From contig JBGATO010000002.1 in assembly GCA_044229145.1 (NCBI GenBank), positions 45,873-109,872 of the forward strand: DNA of 64,000 nucleotides, read 5' to 3'. The DNA is from Candidatus Eiseniibacteriota bacterium (lineage in GTDB: Bacteria; Eisenbacteria; RBG-16-71-46; CAZEPH01). Under the pieces are notes generated by a model. It did not search any database. It worked only from the letters and a program-made list of their open reading frames with translations, and was not told the origin of the DNA. Each line of letters starts with the position of its first letter. Position 1 is the first letter of the stretch. Shown here in pieces: positions 14,540 through 48,721 of this stretch. The position numbers and the translations under genes are program-made.

Positions 14540-14653
14540 CGCCTCTCTCGTGCGCGGAACTGTCGGGGGGAGGACGTATGCTCCGGGGCCCACGCGGAGA
14601 CTCGGAGATTTCATGGACGGACGTTCGGCACCGGCACGGCGGATCGCAGCGCG

Positions 14654-18700: not shown

Positions 18701-18846
18701 GCGATGCGTGCCCTGGTGGACTTGCAGGAAGGCGGCCGCATGGTCGGCGTGATCTCGCACGTCACCGAAATGCTGCAGCAGATCCCAACGCGCCTCGAGG
18801 TCCGCGGCGGCCGCGGCGGCAGCAGCGCGCGGTTCGTCATCGGATG
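15781..18846 (+). pseudogene. sbcC: exonuclease SbcCD ATPase subunit C; reading frame disrupted (pseudogene or sequencing indels)
   Basis: GTG 15781 overlaps the sbcD stop. N-terminal Walker A FLIHGPTGAGKST in frame 1 is intact to ~16850. The zinc hook LVDGEPCAVCGA (~17310) is only in frame 2. HPAPARVDGG...ALEALGRSQAAVARSEEKLAGLL is back in frame 1. QRLEGAAAAAAAALARAEAAL is in frame 0. From ~17870, signature and Walker B/D-loop (TLSGGEGFMAALSLALGLADV...IFVDEGFGSLD) are in frame 2 to the stop at 18846. Total length (~1022 codons) is as expected for SbcC. Confidence 0.7.
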
Positions 18847-23658: not shown

Positions 23659-24462
23659 ATGTCCGATCTACTCCACTCGATGTCGCTGCGTGGCCGCCAC
23701 GCGCTGGTCTGCGGGGCGAGCGCCGGCATCGGCCGCGCCACCGCGATCGCCCTCGCGAGCCTCGGCTGCCGCGTGACGCCGCTGGCCCGCCGCGCGGATC
23801 GCCTCGATGCGCTGCTGCACGAGCTGCACGCGGCCGGATCGCCTGACTCGACGCGCTTCGTGGTCGCCGACCTCAACGATCGTGTCGCCGCGCGCGTCGC
23901 CGTCGAGGCGCTGCTCGGCGAAGTCGGGCCGGTGCACCTGCTGCTCAACAACAGCGGCGGCCCGGCGGCCGGTCCCGTGCTCGAGGCCGACGAGCGCGCC
24001 TTCCTCGACGCCTTCGGGCGCCACGTGCTGGCGGCGCACATGTTGACGCGGCTCGTGCTGCCCGGCATGCGCGAGGCGGGCTTCGGGCGCATCGTCAACG
24101 TCATCTCGACGTCGGTGCGCGAGCCGATCCCGAACCTCGGCGTCAGCAACACGATTCGCGGCGCGATGGCGTCGTGGGCGAAGAGCGTGTCGCGCGAGTT
24201 GCCGCCCGGCGTCACCATCAACAACATCCTGCCGGGTTACACCGCCACCGAGCGGCTCGGCGAACTCGCGGCGACGCTGTCCGCGAAAACCGGTCGCACC
24301 GAAGCACAAGTCGAACACGATTGGGTGGCGGCGGTGCCGGAGGGCCGGCTCGGCCAGCCGCAGGAGACCGCGGCGGCGATCGCGTTCTTGATGTCGCCGG
24401 CGGCGTCGTACATCCGCGGGGTGAGTCTCGCCGTCGACGGCGGGCGCTTGCAGTCGATCTGA
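23659..24462 (+). CDS. SDR-family oxidoreductase
   Basis: ATG 23659 with AGGAGA RBS. Glycine-rich NAD(P)-binding motif ALVCGASAGIGRA. Confidence 0.85.
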   Translation: MSDLLHSMSLRGRHALVCGASAGIGRATAIALASLGCRVTPLARRADRLDALLHELHAAGSPDSTRFVVADLNDRVAARVAVEALLGEVGPVHLLLNNSGGPAAGPVLEADERAFLDAFGRHVLAAHMLTRLVLPGMREAGFGRIVNVISTSVREPIPNLGVSNTIRGAMASWAKSVSRELPPGVTINNILPGYTATERLGELAATLSAKTGRTEAQVEHDWVAAVPEGRLGQPQETAAAIAFLMSPAASYIRGVSLAVDGGRLQSI

Positions 24463-24475
24463 GGTCGGAGCCGCG

Positions 24476-25693
24476 ATGAAATTCGACGTCTTCTTCTCCA
24501 TCAGTCAAACGCCGGTGCGGGGCGAACTGCCGAGTGAAGCGCAGATGTTCCGCAACTTCTTCCACGAGGTGGAAGCGGCGGATGCGCTCGGGTATGACAC
24601 GGCGTGGATCGCCGAGTCGCATCTCAGTTCCGAGGTGCAGAAGCAGCACGCGAAGCCGGTCATTCCCCACTGGCAGGGCGAGGTCGGACTCAACTGCGAT
24701 TTCCTGCAGCTCGCGTCGCACATCTTCCGCCGCACGCGCCGCATCGAGGCGGGCTCGGCGGTGATGAACATCCTCGTCAATGGCGGGCCGGTGGCGGCCG
24801 CGGAGCGGATTGCCGCGTTCGCGGCGCTACATGGCCTGGACGACGCCGAACGGCGCCGCATCCACGTCGGCTTCAGTCAGGGCCGCTTCGAGTTCATGAA
24901 CCGCGCGTCGGGCATCGTGCCGCGCAGCGCGCTCGAAGAGGCGGCGTGGCCGGCGTTGCGCCAAGCGATCTTCGCCGAGGCGAGCGAGATCTTCGTGCGG
25001 CTGTTGCGCGGCGACACGCTCTGCGGCGACGACATCGCCGCGCCGGTGCTGACCCGCGCGCACTTCAAGACCGACGCCGAATGGGCGCGCGTGCAAGACG
25101 CGGCGAACGCGCCGGCCGCGACATCCATCGCGATGCCGCGCCGCTTCGTGTTCGACGTGTTGCAGATCGTGCCGCGCGCGTGGCGTCGCGAGTTGGTGCA
25201 GCTGGTCGTGGGGTCGCATGATCCCGCGCTCCAGGAAGCGGTCAACGCGTGGGCGCCGGTGCAAGTGTTCAACCTGTCGATTACGCAACCAGCGGTGATC
25301 GAGGAGACGCATCGCCGCATGACGGCGGCCTATCATCGCGACGGCGGGCCGTGGAAGCGCGAATACATGCCGCGCACGGTGATGGTGTTCCTCAACGAAC
25401 AACCGGGACTGTCGCCCGAGCAGCGCCGGGCGCGCGCGCGCGAGGAAGCCGAAGCGGCGCTCGGCGCCTACTGGACCGCGCTCGAAGGCACGCTCGATCC
25501 GGCGAAGACGCAGAATGCCGCCGACAACTCACTGGTCGGCAACGCGGCCGATGTCGCGCAGCAAATTCGCGAACGCTTCCACCCGGACGACCGCCTGATG
25601 CTCTGGTTCGATTTCTTCAATCACGACGCCGCGCGCGTCGTCGCCGACATGGAGGCGTTCATGACGCAGGTCGCGCCGCAGGTGAACGCGTGA
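24476..25693 (+). CDS. LLM-class (luciferase-like) flavin-dependent oxidoreductase
   Basis: ATG 24476. 405 aa TIM-barrel LLM family (MKFDVFFSISQTP...GYDTAWIAESH...). Confidence 0.85.
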   Translation: MKFDVFFSISQTPVRGELPSEAQMFRNFFHEVEAADALGYDTAWIAESHLSSEVQKQHAKPVIPHWQGEVGLNCDFLQLASHIFRRTRRIEAGSAVMNILVNGGPVAAAERIAAFAALHGLDDAERRRIHVGFSQGRFEFMNRASGIVPRSALEEAAWPALRQAIFAEASEIFVRLLRGDTLCGDDIAAPVLTRAHFKTDAEWARVQDAANAPAATSIAMPRRFVFDVLQIVPRAWRRELVQLVVGSHDPALQEAVNAWAPVQVFNLSITQPAVIEETHRRMTAAYHRDGGPWKREYMPRTVMVFLNEQPGLSPEQRRARAREEAEAALGAYWTALEGTLDPAKTQNAADNSLVGNAADVAQQIRERFHPDDRLMLWFDFFNHDAARVVADMEAFMTQVAPQVNA

Positions 25694-26856
25694 GCGCGCC
25701 GCGCACGCCGGGCCTCGCGTTGCGCAGCGCCGTCTATCCGCGTTCGCCGCTCGGCGAACACGATGCGCGCATTCCCACCGGCCGCGATGTCGAGTGGGAG
25801 CCGCTCGTCGACTACCGCCGCCACGGCGTCAGCGAGACCACGATCCACGGCGCCGTCGCGTGGGCGCACGGTGACGAGATGATCCACTCGTTCGGCGGCA
25901 ACGTGTTGTGCTACGGCCGCTCGATGATGAAGCCGCTCACGATGAAGGTGTTCACCGACGTGCTCGGGCCGGTGCTGTCACCGAAACAGCGCGCCATCAG
26001 CGTCGCCTCGCACAACGGCACCGCGGAACACGTCGAAGCCGCGCAGTCGATTCTGCGCGAGGACGAGTGGGGCTTGATGCAGGCGCCGCTCGACGTGCCG
26101 CTGGTGCAGTTCGGCCGTCAAGTGCGCCGCCCGCGCCGCTGGTATCACACGTGCTCCGGCGAACACGCGGCGATTCTGCTCGGCTGCCGCCTGAAGGGCT
26201 GGAGCCGTGCCGGCTACACGCTGCCGCACCATCCGTTCTTTCAGGCGTATCTCGATGTCCTGCGGCGCTACCTCGGCCCCGACTGGTCGCCGCTGCGCGT
26301 GGCGCGCGATGGCTGCGGCCTGCCGACGGTGTCGAACACGGTGAGCGAGCTTGCGTTGCTGTTCGCCGGTGTTGCCGCGCGCCGCGACGAGGACTGGATC
26401 TGGGACGCGATGGTGTCGTTCCCGGACTTGGTCGGCGGCTTCAATCGACTCGACTCGACGATCCTCAAAGCCTGCGGCGGCCGCGTCATCGCGAAGGAAG
26501 GCGCCGACGGCTTGCTCGGTCTCGCGGTCGAACACGAAGACTTCCCGCGCGGCCTCGGCATCGTGATCAAGATCGCGCACGGCTGGGATCCGCGCGCCAC
26601 CTGGTACGTCGCGCGCGCGGTGCTCGGGGTGCTCGGGTTCGAGTTGCGCAATCCGTACCCGCTGCATCGCCAGAAGGCGTTCCTGGTGCCGGGCGTCGTG
26701 CCGGAGTCGCTGCTCGCGCGGCTCGAGCAGATTCCGACCTGGGATGAATGGGATCCCGACCGCGACCGCTGGTATTACGAGTGGGAGCAGTACGACGACG
26801 GCTTCGCGTTGTGGAGTGGCGAAGGCGCATCCGGCGGCGACGGGAGGACGCCATGA
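25690..26856 (+). CDS. asparaginase-II-family (PF06089-like) amidohydrolase
   Basis: GTG 25690 overlaps the LLM stop (GTGA). Motifs SHNGTAEHV and CSGEHAAILLGC match the L-asparaginase II family. Confidence 0.75.
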   Translation: MSAPRTPGLALRSAVYPRSPLGEHDARIPTGRDVEWEPLVDYRRHGVSETTIHGAVAWAHGDEMIHSFGGNVLCYGRSMMKPLTMKVFTDVLGPVLSPKQRAISVASHNGTAEHVEAAQSILREDEWGLMQAPLDVPLVQFGRQVRRPRRWYHTCSGEHAAILLGCRLKGWSRAGYTLPHHPFFQAYLDVLRRYLGPDWSPLRVARDGCGLPTVSNTVSELALLFAGVAARRDEDWIWDAMVSFPDLVGGFNRLDSTILKACGGRVIAKEGADGLLGLAVEHEDFPRGLGIVIKIAHGWDPRATWYVARAVLGVLGFELRNPYPLHRQKAFLVPGVVPESLLARLEQIPTWDEWDPDRDRWYYEWEQYDDGFALWSGEGASGGDGRTP

Positions 26857-28298
26857 CCGCGACGACGCTGACGCATCACATCGGCGGCACGCGTCGCGCA
26901 CCGGCCTCCGGTGCCTACATCGACGACATCGGCCCGGCCACCGGCGAAGTCATCGCGCGCGTGCCACGCGGCGATGAGGTCGATGTCGACGCCGCGGTGG
27001 GCGCCGCACACGACGCGCTGCGCGGCGCGTGGGGCCGCGCGACGCGCCACGAGCGCGCCGACCTCTGCGACGCCATCGCCGACGCGATCGAAGCGCGGCT
27101 CGACGAACTCGCCGAACTCGAGTCGCGCGACACCGGCAAGCCGGTCGCACTGGCGCGCAGCCTCGACGTGCCGCGCGCGGTCGCCAACTTCCGCTTCTTC
27201 GCGGGCGCGGTGCGGCACGATGCCACCGGCGCGCACGAGATGGACGGCGCGCTCAACTACACGTTGCGTCGCCCGCTCGGCGTGGTCGGCTTGATCACGC
27301 CGTGGAATCTGCCGCTCTACTTGTTGTCGTGGAAGGTGGCGCCGGCGCTGGCATGCGGCAACGCCGTGGTGGCGAAGCCGAGCGAGCTGACGCCGCTGAC
27401 CGCGAGCGCGCTCGCCGACATCGTGCAGGAGGTCGGCGCGCCGGCCGGTGCGTTCAACTTGGTGCACGGCCTCGGTGGCGAAGCGGGCCAGGCGCTGGTC
27501 GAGCACCCGCGCGTCGCGGCGATCAGCTTCACCGGCGGCACCGCGACCGGCGCACACGTCGCGCGCACCGCGGCGCCGCAGTTCAAGAAGCTCTCGCTCG
27601 AACTCGGCGGCAAGAACCCGACGATCGTGTTCGCCGATTGCGATTTCGACGCGACCGTCGAAGGCACTGTCCGTGCGGGATTCCTCAATCAAGGCCAAGT
27701 GTGTCTGTGTGGCTCGCGCATCCTGGTCGAACGACCACTCTACGACCGATACGTCGAAGCGTTGATCGCGCGCGTCGGCGCAATGCGCATCGGCGATCCC
27801 TCGGATCCCGCCACCGAACTCGGCGCGCTGGTGAGCGCGGCGCACCGCGAGAAGGTGGAATCGTACATCGCGCTCGCGAAGGCGGAAGGCGGCACCGTGC
27901 ATGGCGGCGAGCGTCCGTCGTTGCCCGCGCCGTTCGACCGCGGCGCGTTCGTGCGCCCGGCCGTCGTCACCGGACTTGCACCCGAGTGCCGCACCGCGCA
28001 GGAGGAGATCTTCGGCCCGGTGGTCACCGTGCATCCGTTCGACACCGAGGACGAAGCGATCGCGATCGCCAACGGCGTGCGCTACGGTCTCGCCGCCAAC
28101 GTGTGGACGAACGATCTCCGCCGTGCGCATCGCGTCAGTGCGGCACTCGAGACCGGCATGGTGTGGGTCAACACGTGGCTGTTGCGCGATCTGCGCGTGC
28201 CGTTCGGCGGCGTGAAGGACAGCGGCGTCGGCCGCGAAGGCGGCGTGCACTCGCTCGAGTTCTTCACCGAGTCGCGCAACGTCTGCATCAAGTTGTAA
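26853..28298 (+). CDS. NAD(P)-dependent aldehyde dehydrogenase
   Basis: ATG 26853 overlaps the upstream stop (ATGA). ALDH motifs: catalytic Cys in GQVCLCGSRI, GG motif HGLGGEAG, ELGGKNP. Confidence 0.9.
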   Translation: MTATTLTHHIGGTRRAPASGAYIDDIGPATGEVIARVPRGDEVDVDAAVGAAHDALRGAWGRATRHERADLCDAIADAIEARLDELAELESRDTGKPVALARSLDVPRAVANFRFFAGAVRHDATGAHEMDGALNYTLRRPLGVVGLITPWNLPLYLLSWKVAPALACGNAVVAKPSELTPLTASALADIVQEVGAPAGAFNLVHGLGGEAGQALVEHPRVAAISFTGGTATGAHVARTAAPQFKKLSLELGGKNPTIVFADCDFDATVEGTVRAGFLNQGQVCLCGSRILVERPLYDRYVEALIARVGAMRIGDPSDPATELGALVSAAHREKVESYIALAKAEGGTVHGGERPSLPAPFDRGAFVRPAVVTGLAPECRTAQEEIFGPVVTVHPFDTEDEAIAIANGVRYGLAANVWTNDLRRAHRVSAALETGMVWVNTWLLRDLRVPFGGVKDSGVGREGGVHSLEFFTESRNVCIKL

Positions 28299-28301
28299 CC
28301 G

Positions 28302-29858
28302 CTAGCGTGCGACGCGGACGAGGCGCGTCGTGGCGCTGACCGCACTGTCGGTGCCGAGTCGCGCGAAGTAGATCCCCGCCGCCAGGCGGGTGTCGGTCCA
28401 GCGAACGATCCAGGGCGTCGCGGCATCGCGATGCTGCCACCGGCGGACGAGCCGGCCCCGCGCGTCGAGGATCGACAGCACGGCGTCGCGTGCCGGCGAG
28501 GCGATGCGGAATTCCCAGCCGTTCGCGAGCTGCCGGGTCTGCACCACGGGCGGCGCTTCGGTGGGCGCGGAGACATCGGCGGGACCCGCGTAGCGAATGC
28601 GCCGCAGTTCTCCGCTCGGATTGAGGAAGTCGGTGAACAAGAGCAGGTAGTAGATCGCGCCATCGGGCCCAACGTCCACCGACGATAGCAGCCACGGCAA
28701 GTTGGTCACCTTCGCCCAGTTCACCGAATCGGGCTGCCCAGGCTCGCGCGCCACGGTGCCCCACGTGCCGTCGCCGCGATCGCCCAGCATCCGCATCCAC
28801 CGTTGGAATCCGTCGGCGCACACGTAACGGCCTTCGTACGACGCCGGCATCGGGAAGCGCTGGCCGCTGCGTCCGCGGATCACGCCGCCACCGAGCACGG
28901 CGGAGCCAGTCGGCGGATTGTGTGCGTAGACGTAGACGGGAAAGGTGAAGCCCATCGCGGTGTCCGGCTGCACGCACGATTGGCCGTACTGCGTGCGCTG
29001 GAAGCCTTCGAAGTACTCCCATCCGAGATTCAGCCCGCCGCCGGTCACGCGGTCGATCTCCTCCCACGATTGATCGCCGACGTCGGCGATGAACAGTGCG
29101 CCGGTGGCATCGTCCACGTCGAGGCTGAACGGATTGCGCACGCCGAGCAGCCACACCAGACGCGTCCACTCGTTCGCACTTGCGACGAACGGATTCGTCG
29201 CCGGTGTGATCACCGACTTCGCCGGCGGGCCGCCCGGCCCATCGGGCAAACCGCTGACATCGAGACGCAGGATCTTGCCGCGCGGATCCGCCAGTGAGGG
29301 CGACGTGCACTCCAATGCGTCATTGCCCGAGCAGACGTAGAGCATGCCGTCGGTGCCGAAGCGCAGACCGCCGCCGTTGTGGACCGCGTACATGTCCGGC
29401 ATGTCGGCGAGCACGAGGTAACGCGATGCCGGATCGGCCGTCATCACGCCGTTCCCGCTGAAGGCGACATCGCCCTGTAGCGTATAGCGCGCCAGGCGCA
29501 TCGTCTGCGCGCCGGAGAACGTGTAGTAGACGTAGAGATACGGCGCGGCGGGGAAGCGCGGGTCGACGGCGACGCCGAGGAGTCCCTGCTCCCAATCGCC
29601 GTAGCGCACGCTGTCGAGTGTCGCCACTGGCGCGGCGACGAGCGTGTCGCGCACGATCTCTCGCACCTTTCCGCTCGCCGTCTCGGTGATCAGCAGGCGG
29701 CCGTCGGGCAGGAATGCCATGCCCGCAGGGCGGTTCATGCCGCCCCGGGCGAGTGTCTCGTCGAGGAAGCCGGTGGGCAGCAGCACGGTCTGCGCGCGCG
29801 CGGACACCGCAGTGCAGACGAGGACGCAGACGAGGACGACGAGACGTGGGACGCGCAT
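28302..29858 (-). CDS. PQQ/GSDH-like (soluble quinoprotein sugar dehydrogenase family) beta-propeller with C-terminal sorting domain
   Basis: Start MRVPRLVVLVCVLVCTAVSARAQ (cat 29856-29858). Propeller blocks (GLLGVAVDP, LRFGTDGMLYV). C terminus ILDARGRLVRRW...AAGIYFARLGTDSAVSATTRLVRVAR is TIGR04183-like. Confidence 0.8.
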   Translation of the reverse strand: MRVPRLVVLVCVLVCTAVSARAQTVLLPTGFLDETLARGGMNRPAGMAFLPDGRLLITETASGKVREIVRDTLVAAPVATLDSVRYGDWEQGLLGVAVDPRFPAAPYLYVYYTFSGAQTMRLARYTLQGDVAFSGNGVMTADPASRYLVLADMPDMYAVHNGGGLRFGTDGMLYVCSGNDALECTSPSLADPRGKILRLDVSGLPDGPGGPPAKSVITPATNPFVASANEWTRLVWLLGVRNPFSLDVDDATGALFIADVGDQSWEEIDRVTGGGLNLGWEYFEGFQRTQYGQSCVQPDTAMGFTFPVYVYAHNPPTGSAVLGGGVIRGRSGQRFPMPASYEGRYVCADGFQRWMRMLGDRGDGTWGTVAREPGQPDSVNWAKVTNLPWLLSSVDVGPDGAIYYLLLFTDFLNPSGELRRIRYAGPADVSAPTEAPPVVQTRQLANGWEFRIASPARDAVLSILDARGRLVRRWQHRDAATPWIVRWTDTRLAAGIYFARLGTDSAVSATTRLVRVAR

Positions 29859-29953
29859 CGGGAACCCCGGGCAGTGAGGAGGCGGCAGGCGGCGGGAGAG
29901 TCCAAGCGTAGACGACCGCGCCGCGCCGGGGAAGCGGGGAGTGCGTCCGGCGC

Positions 29954-31672
29954 CTAGCGCTCCGGTCGCGCGCCGGACGCTGCGATCGACTCTTCGCCGC
30001 GTGCCACCGCCTCGGCGAGCGTCCCGACGACGTTGTCGAGTCCGATGTCGACGAGCAGCCCCGCCTTCTCCAACGCGAACATGGGTTGCGCGTGGACGCC
30101 GGCGAGCACCAGCAGGGTGCGGTCGCGCCGGCACTGGCGCAACAGTTCGACGATCGCGTGCAGGCCCGAGGCGTCGATCGCCAACACGTCGCGCACCAGA
30201 AGGATCAGCACCTTCGGCTTCTTCTCGATGGCGCGCAGCGCATCGTTGAACTGGCTGACCGCCCCGAAGAACAGCGCACCATGCACCTCGAACACTTCGA
30301 CGCCGCGCGGGATGCGCATGCCGGCGCGGCCGTCGCCCGCGCCCTCGTGCAGCAGACCGGTGACGACACTCGACTGCGAGAGCGTCGCCATCCGCATCAT
30401 GAACAGCAGCGCGGCGAGGACCATGCCGACGCCGAGCGCGGTGGTGAGGTCGACGACGATCGTCAGGGTGAACGTGGCGAGCAGCACACCGACGTCGCTG
30501 CGCGGGCCGCGGAACATGCGCAGGAAACTCCGCCACTCGCTCATGTTGTACGCGACGACGAGCAGGATGCCGCTGAGCGCGGCGATCGGCACGTGGCCGG
30601 CGAGCGGTCCGGCGGCGAGCAGGATGACCAGCAGCACGACCGCGTGGACCATCCCCGCGATCGGCGATGTCGCGCCGTTCTTGATATTCGTCGCGGTGCG
30701 CGCGATGGCGCCGGTCGCCGGAATGCCGCCGAAAACCGGCGACGCGATATTGGCGATGCCTTGCGCGACGAGCTCCGCGTTGGAGCGGTGACGTCCGCCG
30801 GTCATGCCATCCGCGACGACCGCCGACAACAGCGATTCGATGGCCGCGAGCAGCGCGATGGTGAAGGCGACCGGTGCGAGCTGGCGCAGCATCGTCCACG
30901 GCACGTGTGGCAAGCTCGGCGTCGGGAGCGTCGATGGGACGCCGCCGAAGCGCTGCGCGATGGTCTCGGCCGGCACGTGGAAGAGCGCGGTGACGAGCGT
31001 GGCGGCGACCACGGCGACGAGCGGACCCGGGACCCGCCGCGACACGCGCGGCCACAGCACCGTGATGAGGAGCGCGCCGGCCGCGACGGCGCACGACGCC
31101 GGCGTCCACGAGCCGAGGGCCCGCGCGTCCGCCGCGAGCTGCCCGAGCACGTCGGCGCCTGCGGCCGCCGGATGCACCCCGAGGAAATCCTTCACCTGCC
31201 CGCCGGCGATGATGACGGCGATTCCCGCCGTGAAGCCGACGGTCAGCGGGTAGGGCACGAACTTGATGACATCGCCCATCCGCGCGATCCCCATGACCAC
31301 GAGGATGACGCCGGCCATGAGCGTCGCGACCGCGAGTCCCGCGTACCCGAACTGGTGCACCGTCGCGGCCACCGTGACGATGAAGGCACCGGTCGGTCCG
31401 CCGATTTGCACCGTGCTCCCGCCGAGCGCGGAGATCAGGAAGCCGGCGACGATCGCCGTGAACAAGCCCTGCTCGGGCTTGACCCCCGAGGCGATGGCGA
31501 AGGCGATGGCGAGCGGCAATGCCACGACACCGACCGTGAGACCCGCCTGGATGTCGCGCACCGCGCGGCCGGCCGAATAGCCGCGCAGCGTGGTGGCGAG
31601 CATCGGGCGCTCGACGTCCCACCAATGGCGGGAGTCTGCTGTGCGCGAAGCGCGGACCGAGGGACCGGACAT
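29954..31672 (-). CDS. SulP-family anion permease with C-terminal STAS domain
   Basis: Start MSGPSVRAS (cat 31670-31672). SulP TM core plus STAS (FEVHGALFFGAVSQF...LVRDVLAIDASGL). Confidence 0.9.
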   Translation of the reverse strand: MSGPSVRASRTADSRHWWDVERPMLATTLRGYSAGRAVRDIQAGLTVGVVALPLAIAFAIASGVKPEQGLFTAIVAGFLISALGGSTVQIGGPTGAFIVTVAATVHQFGYAGLAVATLMAGVILVVMGIARMGDVIKFVPYPLTVGFTAGIAVIIAGGQVKDFLGVHPAAAGADVLGQLAADARALGSWTPASCAVAAGALLITVLWPRVSRRVPGPLVAVVAATLVTALFHVPAETIAQRFGGVPSTLPTPSLPHVPWTMLRQLAPVAFTIALLAAIESLLSAVVADGMTGGRHRSNAELVAQGIANIASPVFGGIPATGAIARTATNIKNGATSPIAGMVHAVVLLVILLAAGPLAGHVPIAALSGILLVVAYNMSEWRSFLRMFRGPRSDVGVLLATFTLTIVVDLTTALGVGMVLAALLFMMRMATLSQSSVVTGLLHEGAGDGRAGMRIPRGVEVFEVHGALFFGAVSQFNDALRAIEKKPKVLILLVRDVLAIDASGLHAIVELLRQCRRDRTLLVLAGVHAQPMFALEKAGLLVDIGLDNVVGTLAEAVARGEESIAASGARPER

Positions 31673-31981
31673 GTCGCCTCCACTCCTACACCTGGAGAGC
31701 GGCGACCGCAAGCACGGGGAGGTGCGCCATTCATCCGTCTGCGCGATACGCGTCACGGTCGCACGGTGCGGCCCACTCGCATCAATGCTCGCTTGTGCAT
31801 GGCGCTGCCGTTTGCCGTGCGGTGCCGTGGCCGGCAACGATGCACGGGTAGCGAGTGGTTGCATCCTCCCTGGCTTCTCCGCACAATTGTCCTCGTCGCC
31901 GCCAACGACTGCCCGCCTGGTGCGACAGAGTTCGCGTCCCTGCTCCCCCAGCCCCTCTCTCATTCCGGAGGATGCGATTCC

Positions 31982-34780
31982 ATGCGCTCGACGTCCTGCG
32001 CACCGCGTCTCGTGACGTGGTGCCTCCCTCTGCTTGCCCTCGTCCCCCTCGCCTCCGCGAGCGGGGCTACACGCACCGGTTCCGTCCCTCGTGCCGCAAT
32101 CTCGCGCGATCCCGACAATCGCCTGGCGGCCAGCCGCGTGTGGCGCGGTTTTCCAGGCGCCACGGTGGCCGCCGGCGACATCGCCGCGTCTGCCACCGAC
32201 GGGTCGATGTCGACCGCCGTCACGATGCCGGCCGGCGAAGCGCTCGAATTCCAGTTCATCGGCGCCCCCCGCTGGCTCAGCGAGATCACGGTGCAGACGG
32301 ATGCGCCCCTGTGGCGGGTGGACGTGCGCGGACTCGACGGCCAGTGGACGACGTTCGGCGCTGGCTCCTCGCACGGTGTCGAGCAGCCGGTGACGTTGAC
32401 GGGCGAGGCGGTGCAGGCAGTCGGAGTGCGCTTCGTGCCCGCCGCCGCAGCACCGTCGGCTCCGGCCGTGCGGCTGGCGGAGATCGCCGCGCACTTCCGG
32501 TATCACGATCCCGATGACGCCGGCCGTGCCGCAGCGGGTAACACCTATCACTCAGATTGGGTGAATCACTATTCCGGCGACACCAACGACCTGAGCAAAT
32601 GCGACGACGACTCGCGTGATCTGCGCGACGCCCTGCAGAACCACAGTTGGACGACGTGGGAACACACCGAGACGAACGCGCACGAAGCGCACTTCAAGTC
32701 GACCATCATCGGGACAGGCGACAACAACGATCACGCGGACAACGCGGATCTTGCGTACTTCTCCGGCCATGGCTCGAGCGGCACCGTCGATCCGGTGTAT
32801 ACCGGGACCGCGTTGGGCTCGATGCTGTTCGACGACGAAACACACGATGACGCCACGCTGGTGCCGAGCGACATGGACGATTCGTGGGGCAACGGCGAGA
32901 TGGAGTGGCTGATCTCCACGTCCTGCCGCACCCTGCGCGGCGAAGGGCGCCCGTACTGGAAGTGGGGCATGGAAGGCGTGCATCTGCTCTGCGGCTCGGA
33001 ATCGTCGATCGCCGACCAGTCGTATGGAGACGTTCTCGGCGACGAGTTGATCGACAACGGCATCTTCGACAGCCCGATCACCGTGAAGCAGGCGTGGTTC
33101 GACGCGATGGAGGAGTGGAACGGCGGGCACGACGTGGCGGTCGTGCAGGGCGAAACATCGGTGATGGGCACCGATTTCATCTGGGGCGAAGGGTCCGTTT
33201 CCGCAGATCCTGTCGTCGACAACACCTCATTCGTCTGGCTCTACGATGTGGGAGCCACTGCGCCGTCGCGCGGCCAGCTCCCGGCGGTGCCGCGCCTGCA
33301 CGATCCCGTGCGAATCCGCGCGGCCGGCCGTGCCGCCTGGACGGTGCGTCTCGAACGTGCCGAACTCGAGCGCCCAGCGGCGGCGCAGATGCCGGTGTGG
33401 AACGTGGTGCCGCGCATGGTCGATTCGGTGTACGTGCGCAACCTGTCCAACCAGGTGTGCGGCGTGTACGGCCAGCTGTGCGCCACCGACATCGGGATCG
33501 GCGCGCCGAATGAATACACCAGTGTCCAGGGGCCCTACCAACTGCGCGTGCGCACCGAGACCGGCGGCCTCTCGCTGACCGACGTGTCGAATTGGATGTC
33601 GGTGCGGGCGATTCCGCCGCAGCTGCTCACCGGACAGGCGGCGCTCACTCAGGCGGATCAAATCCTCACGCAGTTGAATTTCAGGCCGGCGGATGCGACC
33701 GCCACAGGGGTGTCCTACCTCTGGCAGCGCGGCGAGAGCGCCACCGGACCCGGCTCGCTGGCGGCCGGGGACACCAGCTTTGCGATCGCCACGAAGGTGA
33801 CGTTTACGCGGCGGGTCGGCAGCGGCGAAGGCTATCCGGTCTTCGGCCCGGGCGCCTCGATCTCCGTCACCATGGGGCACAATGGGGCGCTTCAGCGGAT
33901 CTTCGGCCGCGGGTGGCGGCAACTGTCGCAGGGTGCCCAGGCGACGATTCTCCCGCTCAGCACACTGCTGCCGTCGCTCTCGGCGCTCGGCAACGGCGCC
34001 TTGCTCGACCCGGTGCGGCAGCCGATCGACAGCCTGGTGATCACCAATTGGGAGCTCGGCTACTTCGAACCGGGATGCCGGGAAGCGGTGAACTCGTTGC
34101 GCCCCACGTACCGGCTGCACTGCATCTGCTACGAAGGCACGACCACGTTCGCCGCGGACTTCTCGATGTACGCGGACGCGCTGCCGCTCAACGCGACCAT
34201 TCTCACGCCCGTGGAGGACTTCACGATTCCGCCGGGCGGCAGTGTCTGCTTCAACGGATCGGCCAACGGCGGCACTTCGCCGTACAGCGCGGAGTGGGTG
34301 CACGACGACGGCGAGATCTTCAGTGGCTGGATGTGGTGCCGCACGCTCGGCATGCCGGCCGACCCGCACTCGAACCAGGACAGCGTCCGCACCATGACGC
34401 TCCGGGTCACCGACAGCCGCGGCGCGGTCGCGGAGGCGAAAGTCCACGTCCGTCTGGCGACGGTGACTGCGGCGGATCTCGGCACGGGCGCCCAGGCCGG
34501 CGACGGCTTCCAATCCGTGCCGTCCGTGCTGCGGGATGGCGCCACGCTCGGCTTCCGGGTGCCGGACGGCGGCGGACGCGGGCCGGTTTCGCTGCGTCTC
34601 GTCGACCCTTCGGGGCGCATCGTGCGGACTCTCTTCGAGGGACACCCGGGCGACGGCGCGACGACTGTCCGCTGGAGCCGGTCGGACGCGACGGGAGGGA
34701 AGCTCGCGGCGGGCGTGTACTGGCTCATTCTCGACGCGCCCGCGCTCCACCAATCGCGGCGCATCATCGTCGTCGACTAA
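31982..34780 (+). CDS. secreted 932-aa protein with putative clan-CD-like peptidase module and C-terminal sorting domain
   Basis: ATG 31982 with GGAGGA RBS. Signal peptide MRSTSCAPRLVTWCLPLLALVPLASASG. His-Gly ... Cys dyad candidates (ADLAYFSGHGSSG ... WLISTSCRTLRGE). C terminus VSLRLVDPSGRIVRTLF...AAGVYWLILDAPALHQSRRIIVVD is TIGR04183-like. Confidence 0.75.
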   Translation: MRSTSCAPRLVTWCLPLLALVPLASASGATRTGSVPRAAISRDPDNRLAASRVWRGFPGATVAAGDIAASATDGSMSTAVTMPAGEALEFQFIGAPRWLSEITVQTDAPLWRVDVRGLDGQWTTFGAGSSHGVEQPVTLTGEAVQAVGVRFVPAAAAPSAPAVRLAEIAAHFRYHDPDDAGRAAAGNTYHSDWVNHYSGDTNDLSKCDDDSRDLRDALQNHSWTTWEHTETNAHEAHFKSTIIGTGDNNDHADNADLAYFSGHGSSGTVDPVYTGTALGSMLFDDETHDDATLVPSDMDDSWGNGEMEWLISTSCRTLRGEGRPYWKWGMEGVHLLCGSESSIADQSYGDVLGDELIDNGIFDSPITVKQAWFDAMEEWNGGHDVAVVQGETSVMGTDFIWGEGSVSADPVVDNTSFVWLYDVGATAPSRGQLPAVPRLHDPVRIRAAGRAAWTVRLERAELERPAAAQMPVWNVVPRMVDSVYVRNLSNQVCGVYGQLCATDIGIGAPNEYTSVQGPYQLRVRTETGGLSLTDVSNWMSVRAIPPQLLTGQAALTQADQILTQLNFRPADATATGVSYLWQRGESATGPGSLAAGDTSFAIATKVTFTRRVGSGEGYPVFGPGASISVTMGHNGALQRIFGRGWRQLSQGAQATILPLSTLLPSLSALGNGALLDPVRQPIDSLVITNWELGYFEPGCREAVNSLRPTYRLHCICYEGTTTFAADFSMYADALPLNATILTPVEDFTIPPGGSVCFNGSANGGTSPYSAEWVHDDGEIFSGWMWCRTLGMPADPHSNQDSVRTMTLRVTDSRGAVAEAKVHVRLATVTAADLGTGAQAGDGFQSVPSVLRDGATLGFRVPDGGGRGPVSLRLVDPSGRIVRTLFEGHPGDGATTVRWSRSDATGGKLAAGVYWLILDAPALHQSRRIIVVD

Positions 34781-34889
34781 GCGGGACGAGATTTACGGCG
34801 GCCCCGCCAGGCTCGGCGCCTGGCGGGGCTGTCTGCTACACTGCCGCGCGATTCGTCCCCGTCTTCGTCGATCCAGGAGAGTCGCCCGC

Positions 34890-35801
34890 ATGTCCGGCCC
34901 CGGTCGCATCGTCGGTGGCGCCATCGCGCCGCATCCGCCGCACCTCGTGTACGCCGAGAACCCACCGCAAAACGAGCCGCGCGCCGAGTGCGGGTGGGAG
35001 ACGCTGCGGTGGGGCTACGAGCGGCTGCGCGCCAACCTCGCCCGCAAGGACTACGATGTCCTGATCGTGCACTCCCCGCACTGGCGCACCGTCGTTGGTC
35101 ATCACTTTCTCGGCGTGCCGCACTTCAGCGGCTTGAGCGTCGATCCAATCTTTCCGAACTTGTTCCGCTATCACTTCGAACTCGACGTCGATGTCGCACT
35201 CGCCGAGGCGATCCACGACGAAGCGCGCGACGCCGGCCTGGTCACGAAGATGATGCGCAATCCGCACTTCCGCATCGACTACGGCACCATCGCCTCGTGC
35301 CACCTGACGAATCCGGCGTGGGACAAGCCGATCGTCGGCATCTCATCGAACGCGGCATTCTTCTATTACTCGAACGAGGTCGGGCAAGAGCAAATGCTGG
35401 CACTCGGCGAGGCGACGCGCCGCGCGGTGGAGAAGTCGGGCAAGCGCGCGATCGTGCTCGCGAGCAATTCGCTCAGTCACCGCCACTTCACGAGCGAGCC
35501 GCCGATTCCGGAGGACATGTCGCACGAGCACATCTACCACCACGGCCAATACCTGTGGGACATGCACGTGCTCGACTTGCTGCGCCGCGGCCGCGCGCGC
35601 GAGTTCCTCGACGAGATGCCGGACTTCACCGATCAAGCCGAGAGCGAGACCAAGGCGGGCTCGACGAGCTGGCTGATCGCGGCGCTCGGGTATCCCGAGT
35701 ATCCGGCGGAGGTGCACGGCTACGGCACGGTGATCGGCACCGGCAACGCGATCGTCGAGTGGGACCCCGAACGCGCCGCGGTCGCGGGAGGTGCGCGATG
35801 A
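34890..35801 (+). CDS. LigB-type (class III) extradiol ring-cleavage dioxygenase, catalytic beta subunit (AmnB-like)
   Basis: ATG 34890. N-terminal GGAIAPHPPHLV and LIVHSPHW retain the metal-ligand/catalytic histidines of the LigB/AmnB family. Confidence 0.8.
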   Translation: MSGPGRIVGGAIAPHPPHLVYAENPPQNEPRAECGWETLRWGYERLRANLARKDYDVLIVHSPHWRTVVGHHFLGVPHFSGLSVDPIFPNLFRYHFELDVDVALAEAIHDEARDAGLVTKMMRNPHFRIDYGTIASCHLTNPAWDKPIVGISSNAAFFYYSNEVGQEQMLALGEATRRAVEKSGKRAIVLASNSLSHRHFTSEPPIPEDMSHEHIYHHGQYLWDMHVLDLLRRGRAREFLDEMPDFTDQAESETKAGSTSWLIAALGYPEYPAEVHGYGTVIGTGNAIVEWDPERAAVAGGAR

Positions 35802-37186
35802 GCCGCGAGGGAACCATCGTCGCCGGCTACATCGTGCCGGGCATGCCGCATCCGCTGCTGGTGCCGGAGCGCAACGCCGGATGGGCATCGCTGCGCGCGA
35901 GCTACGAACGTGTCGCGGCGGAGATCGCGCGTCACGACGCCGACCTGCTCATTCTCTACAGCACGCAGTGGATCTCGATCATCGGTCACCAAGTGCAGGC
36001 CGATCCCGAACCGGTGTGGCATCACGTCGACCCCGAGTGGCACGAGCTCGGCGACATGCCGTATCGCTTCCGCATCGACGCGCCGTTTGGCGCCGCGCTC
36101 GAATCGGCGGCACACGCGCGCGGACTCGCGGCGCGCACCGTCGCCTACCACGGTTTCCCGATCGACACCGGCACCGTCGTCGCGCTCACACTGCTCAATC
36201 CGGGCAATCGCCTGCCGGCAAGCGTCGTGTCGTGCAACATGTATGCGGATCGCGCCGAGACGCTCATCTGGGGCAAGGCGGCACGCGACGCCGTGCGCGC
36301 GTGCGGCAAGCGCGCGGTGGCCATCGCGGTGACCGCATTGTCGAACCGCATGTTCACGCATGACATCGATCCGGCTGAGGATCGCATCAGTTCGCTCAAG
36401 GACGACGAGTGGAATCGCAAACTCCTCGAATTGCTCGGCGAAGGGCGGCTCGAGGACGTGTCGCAGTTGGCGCGCGAGTTCAGCGCGCAGGCCAACGGCG
36501 ATCAGAGGCTGAAGGCCCTGTGGTGGCTCGCCGCGCTCATGGGACAGCACAACGACTACGTCGGCGTGGTGCATGACTATCAGGCCGTGTGGGGAACCGG
36601 CGCGGCCATCGTCGGCCTGACGCCGACCGATACCCCGGCGGCGCGCCTCGAGTTCGACGAGGAAGATGTCGACGTCTTCGCGGGCGAGCGCAATGTGCTC
36701 GGCGCGCCCGGCGCACAGCCGCCGCGTGTCGCGTCGCCGTCGCGCGACGCGGCGGTCGCCGTCGCGGAGCCGCCCACCGCAATTCACTCGGAGCACGCAC
36801 CGGCGCCGGTCGGCCCGTATCCGCATGCGCGGCGCGTCGGCGAGTTGCTCTTCGTCAGTGGCATGGGGCCGCGCGACCCGAAGACCAACGAGATCCCGGG
36901 CGGGCCGGTGCGTGGCGCCGACGGACAGCCGCGCGACTACGACATCGAGGCACAAACGCGCGCGACGATCGAGAACGTCAAGCGTGTCCTCGAGGATGCC
37001 GGCGCGTCGCTGCGCGACGTGTTCGACGTGACAGTGTTCCTGATCGACATGGATCGCGATTTCGCGACGTTCAATCGGGTGTACGGCGAATATTTCGCCG
37101 ACATCGCGCCGACGCGCACGACGCTCGCGGTGCGTGCATTGCCGACGCCGATCGCGGTGGAACTCAAGGTCATCGCCCAGGGGTGA
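35798..37186 (+). CDS. fusion: LigB-type dioxygenase alpha (non-catalytic, AmnA-like) subunit + RidA/YjgF deaminase-like domain
   Basis: ATG 35798 overlaps the upstream stop (ATGA). N-terminal ~290 aa is LigB-like but has STQW in place of SPHW. The C-terminal ~125 aa (HAPAPVGPYPHARRVGELLFVSGMGPRDP...TVFLIDMDRDFATFNRVYGEYF...PTRTTLAVRALPTPIAVELKVIAQG) is a complete RidA fold. Confidence 0.75.
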   Translation: MSREGTIVAGYIVPGMPHPLLVPERNAGWASLRASYERVAAEIARHDADLLILYSTQWISIIGHQVQADPEPVWHHVDPEWHELGDMPYRFRIDAPFGAALESAAHARGLAARTVAYHGFPIDTGTVVALTLLNPGNRLPASVVSCNMYADRAETLIWGKAARDAVRACGKRAVAIAVTALSNRMFTHDIDPAEDRISSLKDDEWNRKLLELLGEGRLEDVSQLAREFSAQANGDQRLKALWWLAALMGQHNDYVGVVHDYQAVWGTGAAIVGLTPTDTPAARLEFDEEDVDVFAGERNVLGAPGAQPPRVASPSRDAAVAVAEPPTAIHSEHAPAPVGPYPHARRVGELLFVSGMGPRDPKTNEIPGGPVRGADGQPRDYDIEAQTRATIENVKRVLEDAGASLRDVFDVTVFLIDMDRDFATFNRVYGEYFADIAPTRTTLAVRALPTPIAVELKVIAQG

Positions 37187-37776
37187 ACGCCCCGCTGGTC
37201 ACCGACGGTGCCGGCGCGCTCCTGCCGTGGGCGCGCAGCCTGTGGGTGTACGCCGGCGTGCTGTTCGCGGACGCGCTCTCGCTGCCGGTGGGCTCGACAC
37301 TCTACGTGGCGGCGATGGGCACGGTGCACTCGCCGCTGGTCGTCGCGTTGGTCGGCGCATCGGCGACGACGGCCGGCTCGCTGGCGCAGTATGGGATCGT
37401 GCGGTGGATCATGCGGGCGGGTGTCACGCGGCGGGGCGCGGTAGCCCGTGTGCGTGCGCGCATCGAGCATGCGGTGGCCCATGCACGCGATGCGACGGCG
37501 GCGGCGCTGTTCGTCGTCTATGCGACGCCGCTCAGCGCGGGGCCCCTGCGGTTGATCGCCGCGGTGAGCGGCTTCTCGCTGTGGCGCTTCACGGCCGCCA
37601 TCTGGTTGGGCTGCCTGCCCTACTATTTCGTGCTCGCCACCCTCGGGCGGGCGATTCACTTTCCGTGGTGGATGTTGGCCGCGGGCATCGGCATCGTGCT
37701 GGGATTGGGGATCGTGCACGCGGTGCAGATGTGGCGCGCCGCGTCCCCCGAGGGCGGCGCGGCGCGCGACGACTAG
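37183..37776 (+). CDS. DedA/VTT-domain-like membrane protein (start uncertain)
   Basis: GTG 37183 overlaps the upstream stop. Hydrophobic 197 aa (LSLPVGSTLYVAAMG...). Family assignment tentative. Confidence 0.5.
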   Translation: MNAPLVTDGAGALLPWARSLWVYAGVLFADALSLPVGSTLYVAAMGTVHSPLVVALVGASATTAGSLAQYGIVRWIMRAGVTRRGAVARVRARIEHAVAHARDATAAALFVVYATPLSAGPLRLIAAVSGFSLWRFTAAIWLGCLPYYFVLATLGRAIHFPWWMLAAGIGIVLGLGIVHAVQMWRAASPEGGAARDD

Positions 37777-47013: not shown

Positions 47014-48513
47014 TTACTCGGTGAGCAGAATGGTGCCCGTGGCGCGGGCGCCCTGTGACTCGACGTCGAGCCGGTACACGCCGTGCGGCAGGCGCCGCCC
47101 GGTGGAATCGTGCCCATCCCAACTCACGGTGCGTTCGCCGCGTGCGCCGTCGACGTGCCACCGCCGCACCACGCGTCCCCGCACGTCGCTGAGCAGCAGG
47201 CGCGTGGCGCCGGCGTCGGCTTGCGCCCAGCACAGCCGCGCCCGGCTCGACGTCGTCCCGCGCACCTGCAGGGACGATTCCGACGCCGGCGGAGGCGCCA
47301 CGGCCGTGACGGTCGGCTCGAGTCGCCACACCGCGTTGCTGGTGAGATCGACGATGTGCAGGATGCCGTCGGGATCGAGATCGAAATCGGTCACCGCGCC
47401 GAATCCCTGGCCCCAGGTCAGTGAGGCAACCTCGCTCGTGTTGTTGTCCGCGACGCGATCGGCGAGCAGCGGATCGCTCAGCACGAACGAATCGCGCGAC
47501 GCCGCCATCGGGAACAGGTACAGCCTGCCGAAGTTGTTGTCGCCGACGATGCACTGATCTTGCAGCGCCGGACCGTAGTGCGGCGTGTGCAGGAAGAGGA
47601 TCGCGCACGGCGTCACCACCTGCGCCCACGAGAACTCCGGATCGCTGTACGCGGCGCCGGGCGCCATCCAGAGATCCGCGACGCCCTTCGGCGAGCGCGC
47701 GTCGGGCCCGACGATCTGTTCCCAGCCGCCGTTCATGCCCGGCGTGATGCGATTGATCTCGTCGTAACTGGTGGGCCCCGGCTCGGTGTTCCACAGTGTG
47801 CCGGTGAGCGGATCGAAGGTCATGCCGAAGCAGTTGCGCAGGCCGTACGAGTACACCAGCTCCATGCGTGTCACGCCGGCGAACGGATTGTCGGCGGGCG
47901 CGCTGCCATCGTCGTTCATGCGCATGACGACGCCGGTGGTGTCCGGCGCCGGTCCGGCCGGATAGTTCTGCAACTTGCCGTTGCGATTGAGTTCGCCGAT
48001 CACCGCGTAGAGTTTGCCATCGGGACCGAACTGCAGGATACCGCCGTCGTGATTCGGGCCCGGCGTGACCTCGAGCCGCTGGATGATGGTCGGCGTCGTG
48101 AGCGCGCTGCCCGTCCACGTATAGCGCACGATGCGATTGTCGAGCGCCTGCGTCGAGTTGCTGGTGTCGTTGAGCGTCGAGCTCTGCGTGAAGTAGACGT
48201 AGACCCACGGCGTCGCCGGGAACTGCGGGTGCAAGGCGATGCCGAGCAGGCCGCGCTCGCTCGCCGAGTTGACGGCGACATCGAGCACCGGCGCCGGCTG
48301 CAAGACGCCGCCGATGACGCGCTGCACGCGGCCGGTGGTCTTCTCGCACACCAAGAAATCGCCGCGATCGAGGAACACCATGGTGGTCGGCGAGTTGAGG
48401 CCAGTGACCACCGCGGTGACCTTGAGCGTGGTGTCCGCCATCGTCGGCGCCGCCAGGGCAGGCCGCGCGCAGGCGACGACGAGCAGCGTGAGGGCACGAC
48501 CGAGCATTCGCAT
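47014..48513 (-). CDS. PQQ/GSDH-like beta-propeller with C-terminal sorting domain (paralog of 28302-29858)
   Basis: Start MRMLGRALTLLVVACARPALA (alternative ATGs 48525, 48507). Propeller blocks (GLLGIALHP, LQFGPDGKLY). C terminus LLSDVRGRVVRRWHV...HGVYRLDVESQGARATGTILLTE. Confidence 0.8.
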   Translation of the reverse strand: MRMLGRALTLLVVACARPALAAPTMADTTLKVTAVVTGLNSPTTMVFLDRGDFLVCEKTTGRVQRVIGGVLQPAPVLDVAVNSASERGLLGIALHPQFPATPWVYVYFTQSSTLNDTSNSTQALDNRIVRYTWTGSALTTPTIIQRLEVTPGPNHDGGILQFGPDGKLYAVIGELNRNGKLQNYPAGPAPDTTGVVMRMNDDGSAPADNPFAGVTRMELVYSYGLRNCFGMTFDPLTGTLWNTEPGPTSYDEINRITPGMNGGWEQIVGPDARSPKGVADLWMAPGAAYSDPEFSWAQVVTPCAILFLHTPHYGPALQDQCIVGDNNFGRLYLFPMAASRDSFVLSDPLLADRVADNNTSEVASLTWGQGFGAVTDFDLDPDGILHIVDLTSNAVWRLEPTVTAVAPPPASESSLQVRGTTSSRARLCWAQADAGATRLLLSDVRGRVVRRWHVDGARGERTVSWDGHDSTGRRLPHGVYRLDVESQGARATGTILLTE

Positions 48514-48721
48514 GGGAGGGCGCATCCTTTCCGAGAGGGTGTGCTGAGTGTGCCACAGGCCGCGGGCGCACACTAGTCGCGGGCCAGCCGATGGCCGGAC
48601 GCTCAGGAAAACCCCGCAGGCGTGGCGTCGTTCCGCTCGACCGGCGGCGGGTCATCGCCGATACTCCGGCCGCGCCGCCGCGCAGGCAACTTCCGGCTCC
48701 CACTCACCTTGCGAGGATGTC

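Follow-up and report, generated by a model that had tools for sequence, protein, structure and literature searches.

The stretch of DNA analyzed here (the window; 64,000 nucleotides, G+C ∼70%, positions 45,873 to 109,872 of contig JBGATO010000002.1 from a Candidatus Eiseniibacteriota bacterium, assembly GCA_044229145.1) carries a pair of genes predicted to encode a 2-aminophenol 1,6-dioxygenase, one subunit of which is joined to a RidA-family domain. Gene 1 (34890-35801, + strand; 303 amino acids [aa]) encodes a predicted amnB/cnbCb-like catalytic β subunit, and gene 2 (35798-37186, + strand; 462 aa) encodes an AmnA-type α subunit, a tether, and a RidA domain in a single open reading frame (ORF). 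The two genes overlap by ATGA, and gene 2 overlaps by GTGA a third gene (37183-37776, + strand) encoding a DedA/VTT-domain membrane protein (PF09335 at 1.2e-12), making three translationally coupled genes. A Shine-Dalgarno-like AGGAGA precedes the ATG of gene 1, and a GGGAGG Shine-Dalgarno sequence precedes gene 2; scanning for promoters and terminators around the β and α/RidA genes revealed nothing exceeding shuffle expectation. The coordinates of genes 1 and 2 and their ATGA overlap are exactly those given in an earlier reading of the window from its letters (the original prediction).

Gene 1 matches the Pfam LigB family (PF02900) at 1.5e-23 and the solved β subunits 3vsg_B (5e-120), 8ihg_A (3e-117), and 7txy_B (8e-110); its residues 5-298 align gap-free to residues 3-296 of CnbCb (3vsg_B). 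It carries the motifs APHPPH (residues 13-18) and SPHW (residues 62-65), and its H15, H64, E253, and H197 are identical to the aligned residues of 3vsg_B and invariant among 72 β subunits of related loci. The corresponding CnbCb residues (H13, H62, E251, and H195) we take to be the 2-His-1-carboxylate Fe(II) site plus the catalytic His/base. Gene 1 is thus predicted to be an AmnB/CnbCb-type catalytic β subunit that cleaves the ring of 2-aminophenol.

The N-terminal domain of gene 2 (35798-36643, + strand; aa 1-282) is AmnA/CnbCa-like and presumably noncatalytic. Residues 6-277 match solved α subunits (7txy_A at 2e-55 and 3vsg_A at 5e-47); G15, Q57, and N183 stand at the positions of the β histidines and D235 at that of the β Glu, with STQW at residues 55-58. 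That is, two of the three iron ligands are lost and N183 occupies the position of the catalytic His; across the fused family, D235 never varies, and G15 and Q57 hardly do. The original prediction had gene 1 keeping its iron-ligand histidines in APHPPH and SPHW, and these align with CnbCb; it had called gene 2 a LigB paralog without iron ligands on the strength of STQW, which the replacements at G15, Q57, and N183 confirm. Genes 1 and 2 appear, from these residues, to be a standard catalytic-β/structural-α pair, except that the α protein has 462 aa rather than the ∼270 to 280 aa of stand-alone α subunits (7txy_A, 279 aa; 3vsg_A, 271 aa; 8ihg_B, 272 aa), and its residues 283-462 have no counterpart in the solved α subunits. 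In 7TXY the heterodimers pair via their β subunits and α is peripheral (PMC10470539). Because α lies outside the α-β-β-α tetramer in solved homologs, its C terminus should be free to carry a deaminase, and by analogy a C-terminal appendage on α is sterically plausible.

An AlphaFold2 model of gene 2, built on a 30-sequence alignment, contains two confident domains, residues 1-282 (predicted local distance difference test score [pLDDT] mostly >80) and residues 325-462, separated by a 42-residue disordered tether (36644-36769, + strand; aa 283-324; pLDDT <50) where a linker of ∼45 aa had been proposed. The first part of the tether is an acidic motif (LEFDEEDVDVFAGERNVL; family consensus LEFDEEDV(D/E)V(F/Y)xG(D/E)RNVL; gene 2 aa 284-301, window 36644-36700), in which E285, D287, E288, E289, G296, R298, V300, and L301 are ≥90% conserved. 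The second part is a variable Ala/Pro/Ser/Gly-rich spacer of 24 to 84 aa (median, 43.5; 30 homologs). The acidic motif is missing from unfused AmnA proteins and from aldehyde dehydrogenase (ALDH)-RidA fusions and might act as a docking peptide.

The C-terminal domain (36770-37186, + strand; aa 325-462 plus the stop codon) belongs to the RidA family. Profile searches with LigB (PF02900) and RidA (PF01042), which had been suggested as a check, found both domains in gene 2, with boundaries at residues 23-274 (1.4e-12) and 332-460 (Ribonuc_L-PSP/RidA, 3.1e-27); together with the confident model of residues 325-462, this bears out a full RidA/YjgF fold after the linker. The PF01042 match scores 95.4 bits (gathering score, 27.3); for the NCBIfam model TIGR00004 ("Rid family detoxifying hydrolase"), whose cutoff is 106.25, the score is 105.0 bits. 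The domain contains R440 (in TRTT), E455 (in VELKV), and Y341 (in GPYPHA), which we take to be the equivalents of Escherichia coli RidA catalytic R105, Glu120, and Tyr17, respectively; 30 fused homologs all retain R440 and E455.

The fusion is not peculiar to this contig. Among the protein matches listed, at least 120 clusters carry both Pfam domains, at 61 to 72% identity; the fusion ORF covers 96 to 100% of the 120 listed clusters, with one exception, and the clusters come from NCBI, JGI, ENA, and Logan assemblies. A genome scan (one genome per GTDB species) returned 578 matching stretches; all 80 of the best 80 that we inspected were full-length fusions (55 to 72% identity), which answers the question, left by the original prediction, of whether the fusion recurs in related genomes. 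According to the labels of metagenome-assembled genomes (MAGs), bacterial hosts include Planctomycetota, Krumholzibacteriota, Latescibacterota, Acidobacteria (Thermoanaerobaculia and Holophagaceae), Myxococcota/Bdellovibrionales, and Proteobacteria, and archaeal hosts are Thermoplasmatota, Poseidoniaceae included. Clustering at 50% essentially merges the fused family into a single cluster and leaves only a few divergent members apart; AmnA-type proteins without the fusion show 31 to 44% identity. Annotations in the sources are inconsistent ("alpha subunit," "reactive intermediate/imine deaminase," "Rid family hydrolase").

The original prediction had named a frameshift artifact joining two genes as the alternative to a true fusion, that is, a sequencing or assembly error that merged separate amnA and ridA genes. 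The window does contain an SbcC-like gene (15781-18847, + strand) that looks indel-split, running over two overlapping frames (15781-18147, with an AAA_23 N terminus, and 16745-18847, with the SbcC Walker B region), which suggests a frameshift or indel there; SbcD lies just upstream, at 14012-15784. Gene 2, on the other hand, is a single uninterrupted ORF that aligns end to end with the 120 listed clusters from many assembly sources and with 80 genome loci spread over many phyla, and its tether holds a conserved motif. Because the full-length fusion recurs across clusters and genomes, we regard the artifact as excluded, its probability being negligible.

The original prediction had also described the fusion as not a commonly described architecture: it is indeed rare in the literature, but it is common in metagenomes. 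Our literature search yielded no publication on either the fusion or a route from kynurenine to 2-aminophenol, although subscription journals were thinly covered, so that a prior description is possible; a survey of the Rid family mentions no LigB fusion (PMC4433059). The fusion is a real, widespread, and unstudied variant of the known 2-aminophenol dioxygenase and 2-aminomuconate deaminase set. Other composite proteins with an AmnA-like LigB domain also turned up: in three database proteins (P0154, P0161, and P0164; 680 to 1,030 aa; here and below, P designates database proteins and L related genome loci), it is joined to an ABC permease domain (BPD_transp_2, branched-chain-amino-acid type), and one of the three also has an alpha/beta-hydrolase domain.

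In the RidA domain, 127 residues align to 124 residues of AmnE (6izh), with loop gaps of only 1 to 2 residues; in the alignments to the generic RidA proteins 2dyy and 1x25, which also lack the ARTT and LPxP motifs, the loop position falls in a gap of 12 residues. The RidA domain and AmnE (6IZH) thus have in common a loop insertion of ∼12 residues and both motifs. Of the family members with solved structures, only AmnE is described as having this loop (Lp2, between β3 and α1; PMC6742747). The nearest RidA relatives outside the fused family (50 to 62% identity) keep the long loop and occur in three architectures: ALDH-RidA proteins (P0245, and P0123 with three tandem RidA repeats); triple fusions in the order ACMSD (ACMS-decarboxylase)-ALDH-RidA (P0239 and P0256); and, at locus L085, a free 144-aa RidA gene that overlaps the stop of an ALDH gene whose product has a C terminus nearly identical to that of the window ALDH. 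In the ALDH-RidA and ACMSD-ALDH-RidA proteins, known from database sequences only, the same RidA clade (50 to 57% identity) is joined to a 2-aminomuconate-branch enzyme; the partner there is a dehydrogenase, with or without a decarboxylase, and the linker is short and without the acidic motif, whereas the partner here is a dioxygenase. The occurrence of one RidA clade in these proteins implies repeated independent fusion of 2-aminomuconate-branch enzymes. Judged by its loop, motifs, and relatives, the RidA domain is predicted to be of the 2-aminomuconate-deaminase (AmnD/AmnE/NbaF) type, deaminating 2-aminomuconate to 4-oxalocrotonate. It is like the known deaminases (AmnD; AmnE [PMC6742747; 6IZH]; NbaF) in its RidA fold, Arg and Glu, long Lp2 loop, and coupling to 2-aminomuconate-6-semialdehyde dehydrogenase (AMSDH), and differs from AmnD/AmnE, which are free 142-aa proteins with Arg56, in being a domain on a dioxygenase α subunit.

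Alternatively, the domain might not be pathway specific but rather a generic imine/enamine scavenger, or an oligomerization scaffold (trimer or hexamer) that assembles dioxygenase units. All generic RidA catalytic residues are kept, and the best PDB matches, to generic archaeal RidA 2dyy (5e-28, 101 bits) and to AmnE 6izh (8e-27, 97 bits), score equally; sequence score alone therefore assigns no specificity. RidA proteins are obligate trimers (PMC6742747), so trimerization would force higher-order assembly on the fused dioxygenase. The shared AmnE-type loop, the repeated fusion or adjacency of this clade to AMSDH, and the very strong cross-phylum conservation of the domain all speak against a generic role, which we consider very unlikely. 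An AmnE-like hexamer is unsupported: the hexamer-stabilizing Arg56 of AmnE is not conserved, and the corresponding position 379 in the fused family is mostly Leu.

A candidate for the enzyme that connects dioxygenase and deaminase is encoded upstream in the window. The ALDH gene at 26853-28298 (+ strand) had been proposed as a 2-aminomuconate semialdehyde dehydrogenase, and this assignment held: its seven top PDB matches (among them 7bzv at 3e-156, 4u3w, and 4i1w; 3e-156 to 2e-149) are all AMSDHs and lie ∼80 to 100 bits above other ALDH classes, consistent with an AMSDH of the AmnC/NbaE type. Since RidA domains of this clade form the C-terminal part of AMSDH fusions or are encoded directly after AMSDH, these links point to a RidA step after the dehydrogenase. 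In the resulting scheme, β/α would open 2-aminophenol to 2-aminomuconate-6-semialdehyde, the separately encoded AMSDH would oxidize the semialdehyde to 2-aminomuconate, and the tethered RidA domain would hydrolyze the enamine/imine to 4-oxalocrotonate and ammonium. The fusion would then join steps 1 and 3, because the dehydrogenase step intervenes between dioxygenase and deaminase; it would set a 1:1 stoichiometry and hold the first and third enzymes together, and the acidic tether motif might recruit the dehydrogenase.

The original prediction held that the fusion channels the unstable ring-cleavage product. Channeling is possible, but direct hand-over is less supported now that the RidA clade is tied to a postdehydrogenase step. 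In its direct form, the RidA domain would deaminate 2-aminomuconate semialdehyde to 2-hydroxymuconate semialdehyde before it cyclizes to picolinate, and the ALDH would then oxidize the hydroxy compound. The physical fusion is, after all, to the dioxygenase and not to the ALDH, and on chemical grounds the semialdehyde bears the same 2-amino-1-carboxylate end that the RidA Arg would bind. In addition, the top NCBIfam match of the ALDH is the hydroxymuconic semialdehyde dehydrogenase model TIGR03216 (score of 633; cutoff of 693), AMSDH-type enzymes accept 2-hydroxymuconate semialdehyde, and 4-oxalocrotonate results from either order of steps. Against this order stand the C-terminal fusion of the RidA clade to AMSDH and ACMSD-AMSDH in pathway order, its position directly after AMSDH when free, and the identity of its closest characterized homolog, 6IZH, as a 2-aminomuconate deaminase. 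We therefore judge direct deamination of the semialdehyde unlikely, though less so than a generic RidA role, and retain the order dioxygenase, dehydrogenase, deaminase.

The genomic context was read from synteny: ORFs of 79 nonredundant loci were assigned to seed families, with counts limited to loci having enough flank, and ORFs left over from this assignment were clustered separately (84 loci). The β and α/RidA genes normally form the 3′ end of a conserved same-strand operon, whose usual order is (TDO)-SDR-LLM monooxygenase-asparaginase_II-like-AMSDH-β-α/RidA-kynurenine formamidase, where TDO is tryptophan 2,3-dioxygenase, SDR a short-chain dehydrogenase/reductase, and LLM a luciferase-like flavin monooxygenase. 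The β gene lies directly upstream of the fusion in 68 of 73 loci, and in 58 of 74 the fusion is immediately followed by a gene for a PF04199 cyclase-type formamidase, which shares its strand in 55. Upstream are the ALDH (52 of 63 loci, same strand), the asparaginase_II-like gene (42/58), and the LLM gene (38/57); the SDR gene is upstream in 26 of 54 loci and follows the formamidase in others, and TDO occupies the 5′ end in ∼13 of 48. The relatives' formamidase is KynB-like (4cog at 1e-45), and the only equivalog model it matched is that for arylformamidase (TIGR03035; 190 to 202 bits, cutoff of 223). No unassigned gene family occurs in more than 7 of the 84 loci. The original prediction had seen the fusion and the ALDH candidate; it missed the wider operon and the tryptophan link.

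Archaeal MAGs (Thermoplasmatota, including Poseidoniaceae; L028, L041, L050, L075, L080, and L084) keep the LLM-asparaginase_II-like-ALDH-β-α/RidA order; their operon proteins are 56 to 64% identical to the bacterial ones, and the formamidase is downstream in most of these loci. The shared gene order therefore argues for interdomain transfer of the whole operon.

In the window, the SDR-LLM-asparaginase_II-like-AMSDH block is intact, its last three genes overlapping at start/stop codons (GTGA and ATGA for the asparaginase_II-like gene). The block begins with the SDR gene (23659-24462, + strand; adh_short_C2 and adh_short at ∼1e-34; 54% identical to the SDR of L002), followed by the gene for a divergent LLM (24476-25693, + strand; PF00296 at 2.4e-9), that for an Asparaginase_II (PF06089)-like amidohydrolase (25690-26856, + strand; sharing 73% identity with its PF06089 counterpart in L002), and the AMSDH gene, whose product is 69% identical to the ALDH encoded directly before the β gene in L002. 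Between AMSDH and the β gene, the operon is split by a 6.5-kb insert (28299-34889) that includes an unknown ORF (28288-29310, − strand), a SulP/STAS sulfate permease gene (within 29954-32551, − strand), and a gene for a secreted DUF6345 protein with a signal-peptide-like N terminus (31982-34780, + strand). Loci L001/L009 and L005 have other inserts at or near the same junction. The TDO gene lies apart (8316-9431, − strand; PF03301 at 1.4e-57), and its product is 62 to 66% identical to TDOs encoded at the operon 5′ end in L011, L021, and L067. In the formamidase position, the window has the DedA gene, as in only one other locus. The overlap of this gene with the fusion, noted originally, is real, but the gene does not belong to the system: we rejected it as a functional partner, since just 2 of 74 loci have such a gene after the fusion.

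Overall, the operon combines the opening steps of the kynurenine pathway, which lead from tryptophan to kynurenine, with the 2-aminophenol lower pathway and has three uncharacterized enzymes between them. The bacterial kynurenine pathway of Burkholderia/Cupriavidus consists of KynA, KynB, kynurenine 3-monooxygenase (KMO), KynU, HAAO, ACMSD, AMSDH, and a deaminase. The operon is like it in having TDO and formamidase at the start and AMSDH and a RidA-type deaminase at the end, but it lacks KMO, kynureninase, cupin HAAO, and ACMSD, and has LLM, the asparaginase_II-like protein, SDR, and a LigB-type dioxygenase in their place. The operon could still be a variant of the classical pathway in which the dioxygenase cleaves another tryptophan-derived o-aminophenol: TDO and formamidase are linked to it, and 3-hydroxyanthranilate and 3-hydroxykynurenine are chemically o-aminophenols. 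We consider this improbable, somewhat more so than direct deamination of the semialdehyde. The β subunit matches bona fide 2-aminophenol/2-amino-5-chlorophenol dioxygenases over its full length (E value, 5e-120); kynureninase, KMO, HAAO, and ACMSD were looked for in the window and the 84 loci, and none recurs; and AMSDH needs a decarboxylated semialdehyde, which only cleavage of 2-aminophenol gives directly.

Because the operon also encodes TDO, formamidase, LLM, the asparaginase_II-like hydrolase, and SDR, the 2-aminophenol would most likely derive from tryptophan/kynurenine. A sequence search of the PDB with the LLM returned no match; its AlphaFold2 model (pLDDT of 89) matches LLM structures in Foldseek at 13 to 18% identity (RslO1, luciferases, RutA, a type II Baeyer-Villiger monooxygenase, and F420 enzymes), and these matches to a model appear uninformative on reaction type beyond the fold. 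The asparaginase_II-like protein matches 8cly (Rhizobium etli-type asparaginase) at 6e-16 and keeps the SxxK, ASHNG, CSGxHA, DGCxxPT, and KxGAxG motifs, which include the Ser-Lys and Cys motifs of R. etli class 3 asparaginase. It reads CSGEHA where asparaginase has CSGKHA, the Lys of which is presumably a zinc ligand of the R. etli enzyme; the change may mean that the metal site or the substrate differs. The SDR has generic family matches only, which assign no specificity.

One route compatible with this gene content begins with TDO and formamidase, which would yield kynurenine. A chemically economical next step would be Baeyer-Villiger-type oxygenation, by the LLM, of the aryl ketone in either kynurenine or N-formylkynurenine. 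The product, a β-aspartyl aryl ester (o-aminophenyl aspartate) or the anilide N4-(2-hydroxyphenyl)asparagine arising from it by O-to-N rearrangement, would be hydrolyzed by the asparaginase_II-like protein to aspartate and 2-aminophenol. AmnB/AmnA-RidA and AMSDH would take 2-aminophenol to 4-oxalocrotonate, which the SDR might reduce toward 2-oxoadipate. Two known pathways offer analogies. In the 4-hydroxyacetophenone pathway, a Baeyer-Villiger monooxygenase and an esterase yield hydroquinone; in the Rut pyrimidine pathway, the LLM RutA acts together with an amidohydrolase, the RidA-type RutC, and a reductase. Shared features would be flavin peroxide attack on a carbonyl, then a hydrolase, and a RidA-type enamine step; LLM, hydrolase, RidA, and reductase co-occur in the Rut system as they do in the fused-family operon. 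No sequence relationship to these pathways is detectable beyond the superfamily, the LLM being 13 to 18% identical to any solved LLM. We lean slightly toward the view that the operon makes 2-aminophenol out of some derivative of tryptophan; the Baeyer-Villiger/asparaginase mechanism from kynurenine, drawn from gene content only, is a tentative proposal that we would sooner doubt than accept.

Taking the observed domain identities, conserved residues, recurrence of the fusion, and synteny together, we think it probable that the locus encodes a LigB-type Fe(II) extradiol 2-aminophenol dioxygenase with a RidA 2-aminomuconate deaminase tethered to its α subunit, at the end of an operon that would act on a tryptophan-derived substrate; the substrates, order of steps, quaternary arrangement, and tryptophan link are the parts that we infer. 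Several observations weigh against it. Besides the equal score of generic RidA and the loss of Arg56 mentioned above, TDO is linked in only that minority of loci (∼13 of 48), and both formamidase and TDO score below their NCBIfam equivalog cutoffs. 4-Oxalocrotonate decarboxylase, hydratase, and aldolase were looked for in the window and the 84 loci, and none is linked. The window's own operon is broken, with the AMSDH block 6.5 kb off and TDO 25 kb off on the other strand, and no formamidase was found within the 64-kb window.

The closest known systems are AmnBA/CnbCaCb of Pseudomonas sp. AP-3, Comamonas CNB-1, and the Micromonospora ARO microcompartment (8IHG, 3VSG, and 7TXY). They are alike in consisting of LigB paralogs encoded in the order β then α, with β carrying the iron site (5e-120) and α lacking it (2e-55). 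They differ in α length (∼270 to 280 aa versus 462 aa here, with RidA and the conserved acidic tether added) and in context: the fused family is not found in an amn/cnb xenobiotic cluster, no decarboxylase, hydratase, or aldolase is linked to it, and its hosts are uncultured nonproteobacterial phyla and archaea.

Elsewhere in the window, two large proteins (4206-8279, + strand, and 47014-48573, − strand), the second of which additionally contains a glucose/sorbosone dehydrogenase domain, carry C-terminal domains of the FlgD_ig type that resemble a common tag for secretion or sorting. A MazF/PemK-type toxin gene is located at 11815-12249 (− strand; PF02452 at 7e-27).

The fusion, each domain of which is of a well-known enzyme type, marks a coherent, highly conserved family (55 to 72% identity) that spans bacterial phyla and archaea. 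It offers a system for studying how nonconsecutive enzymes of one pathway work when tethered, and how a dimer of heterodimers is reconciled with the mismatched symmetry of a trimer. Above all, it is useful for flagging a conserved operon, plausibly one that encodes a new route from tryptophan to 2-aminophenol. Most work on the 2-aminophenol pathway to date concerns nitrobenzene/chloronitrobenzene degradation; if the proposed route is correct, the "xenobiotic" 2-aminophenol meta-cleavage enzymes would gain a natural physiological origin. The route would also imply a new flavoenzyme reaction, a new substrate class for class 3 asparaginase homologs, and a new branch of tryptophan catabolism in abundant uncultured lineages. 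Many uncultured bacteria, as well as archaea of the Marine Group II type, would thereby have a replacement for KMO, kynureninase, HAAO, and ACMSD.

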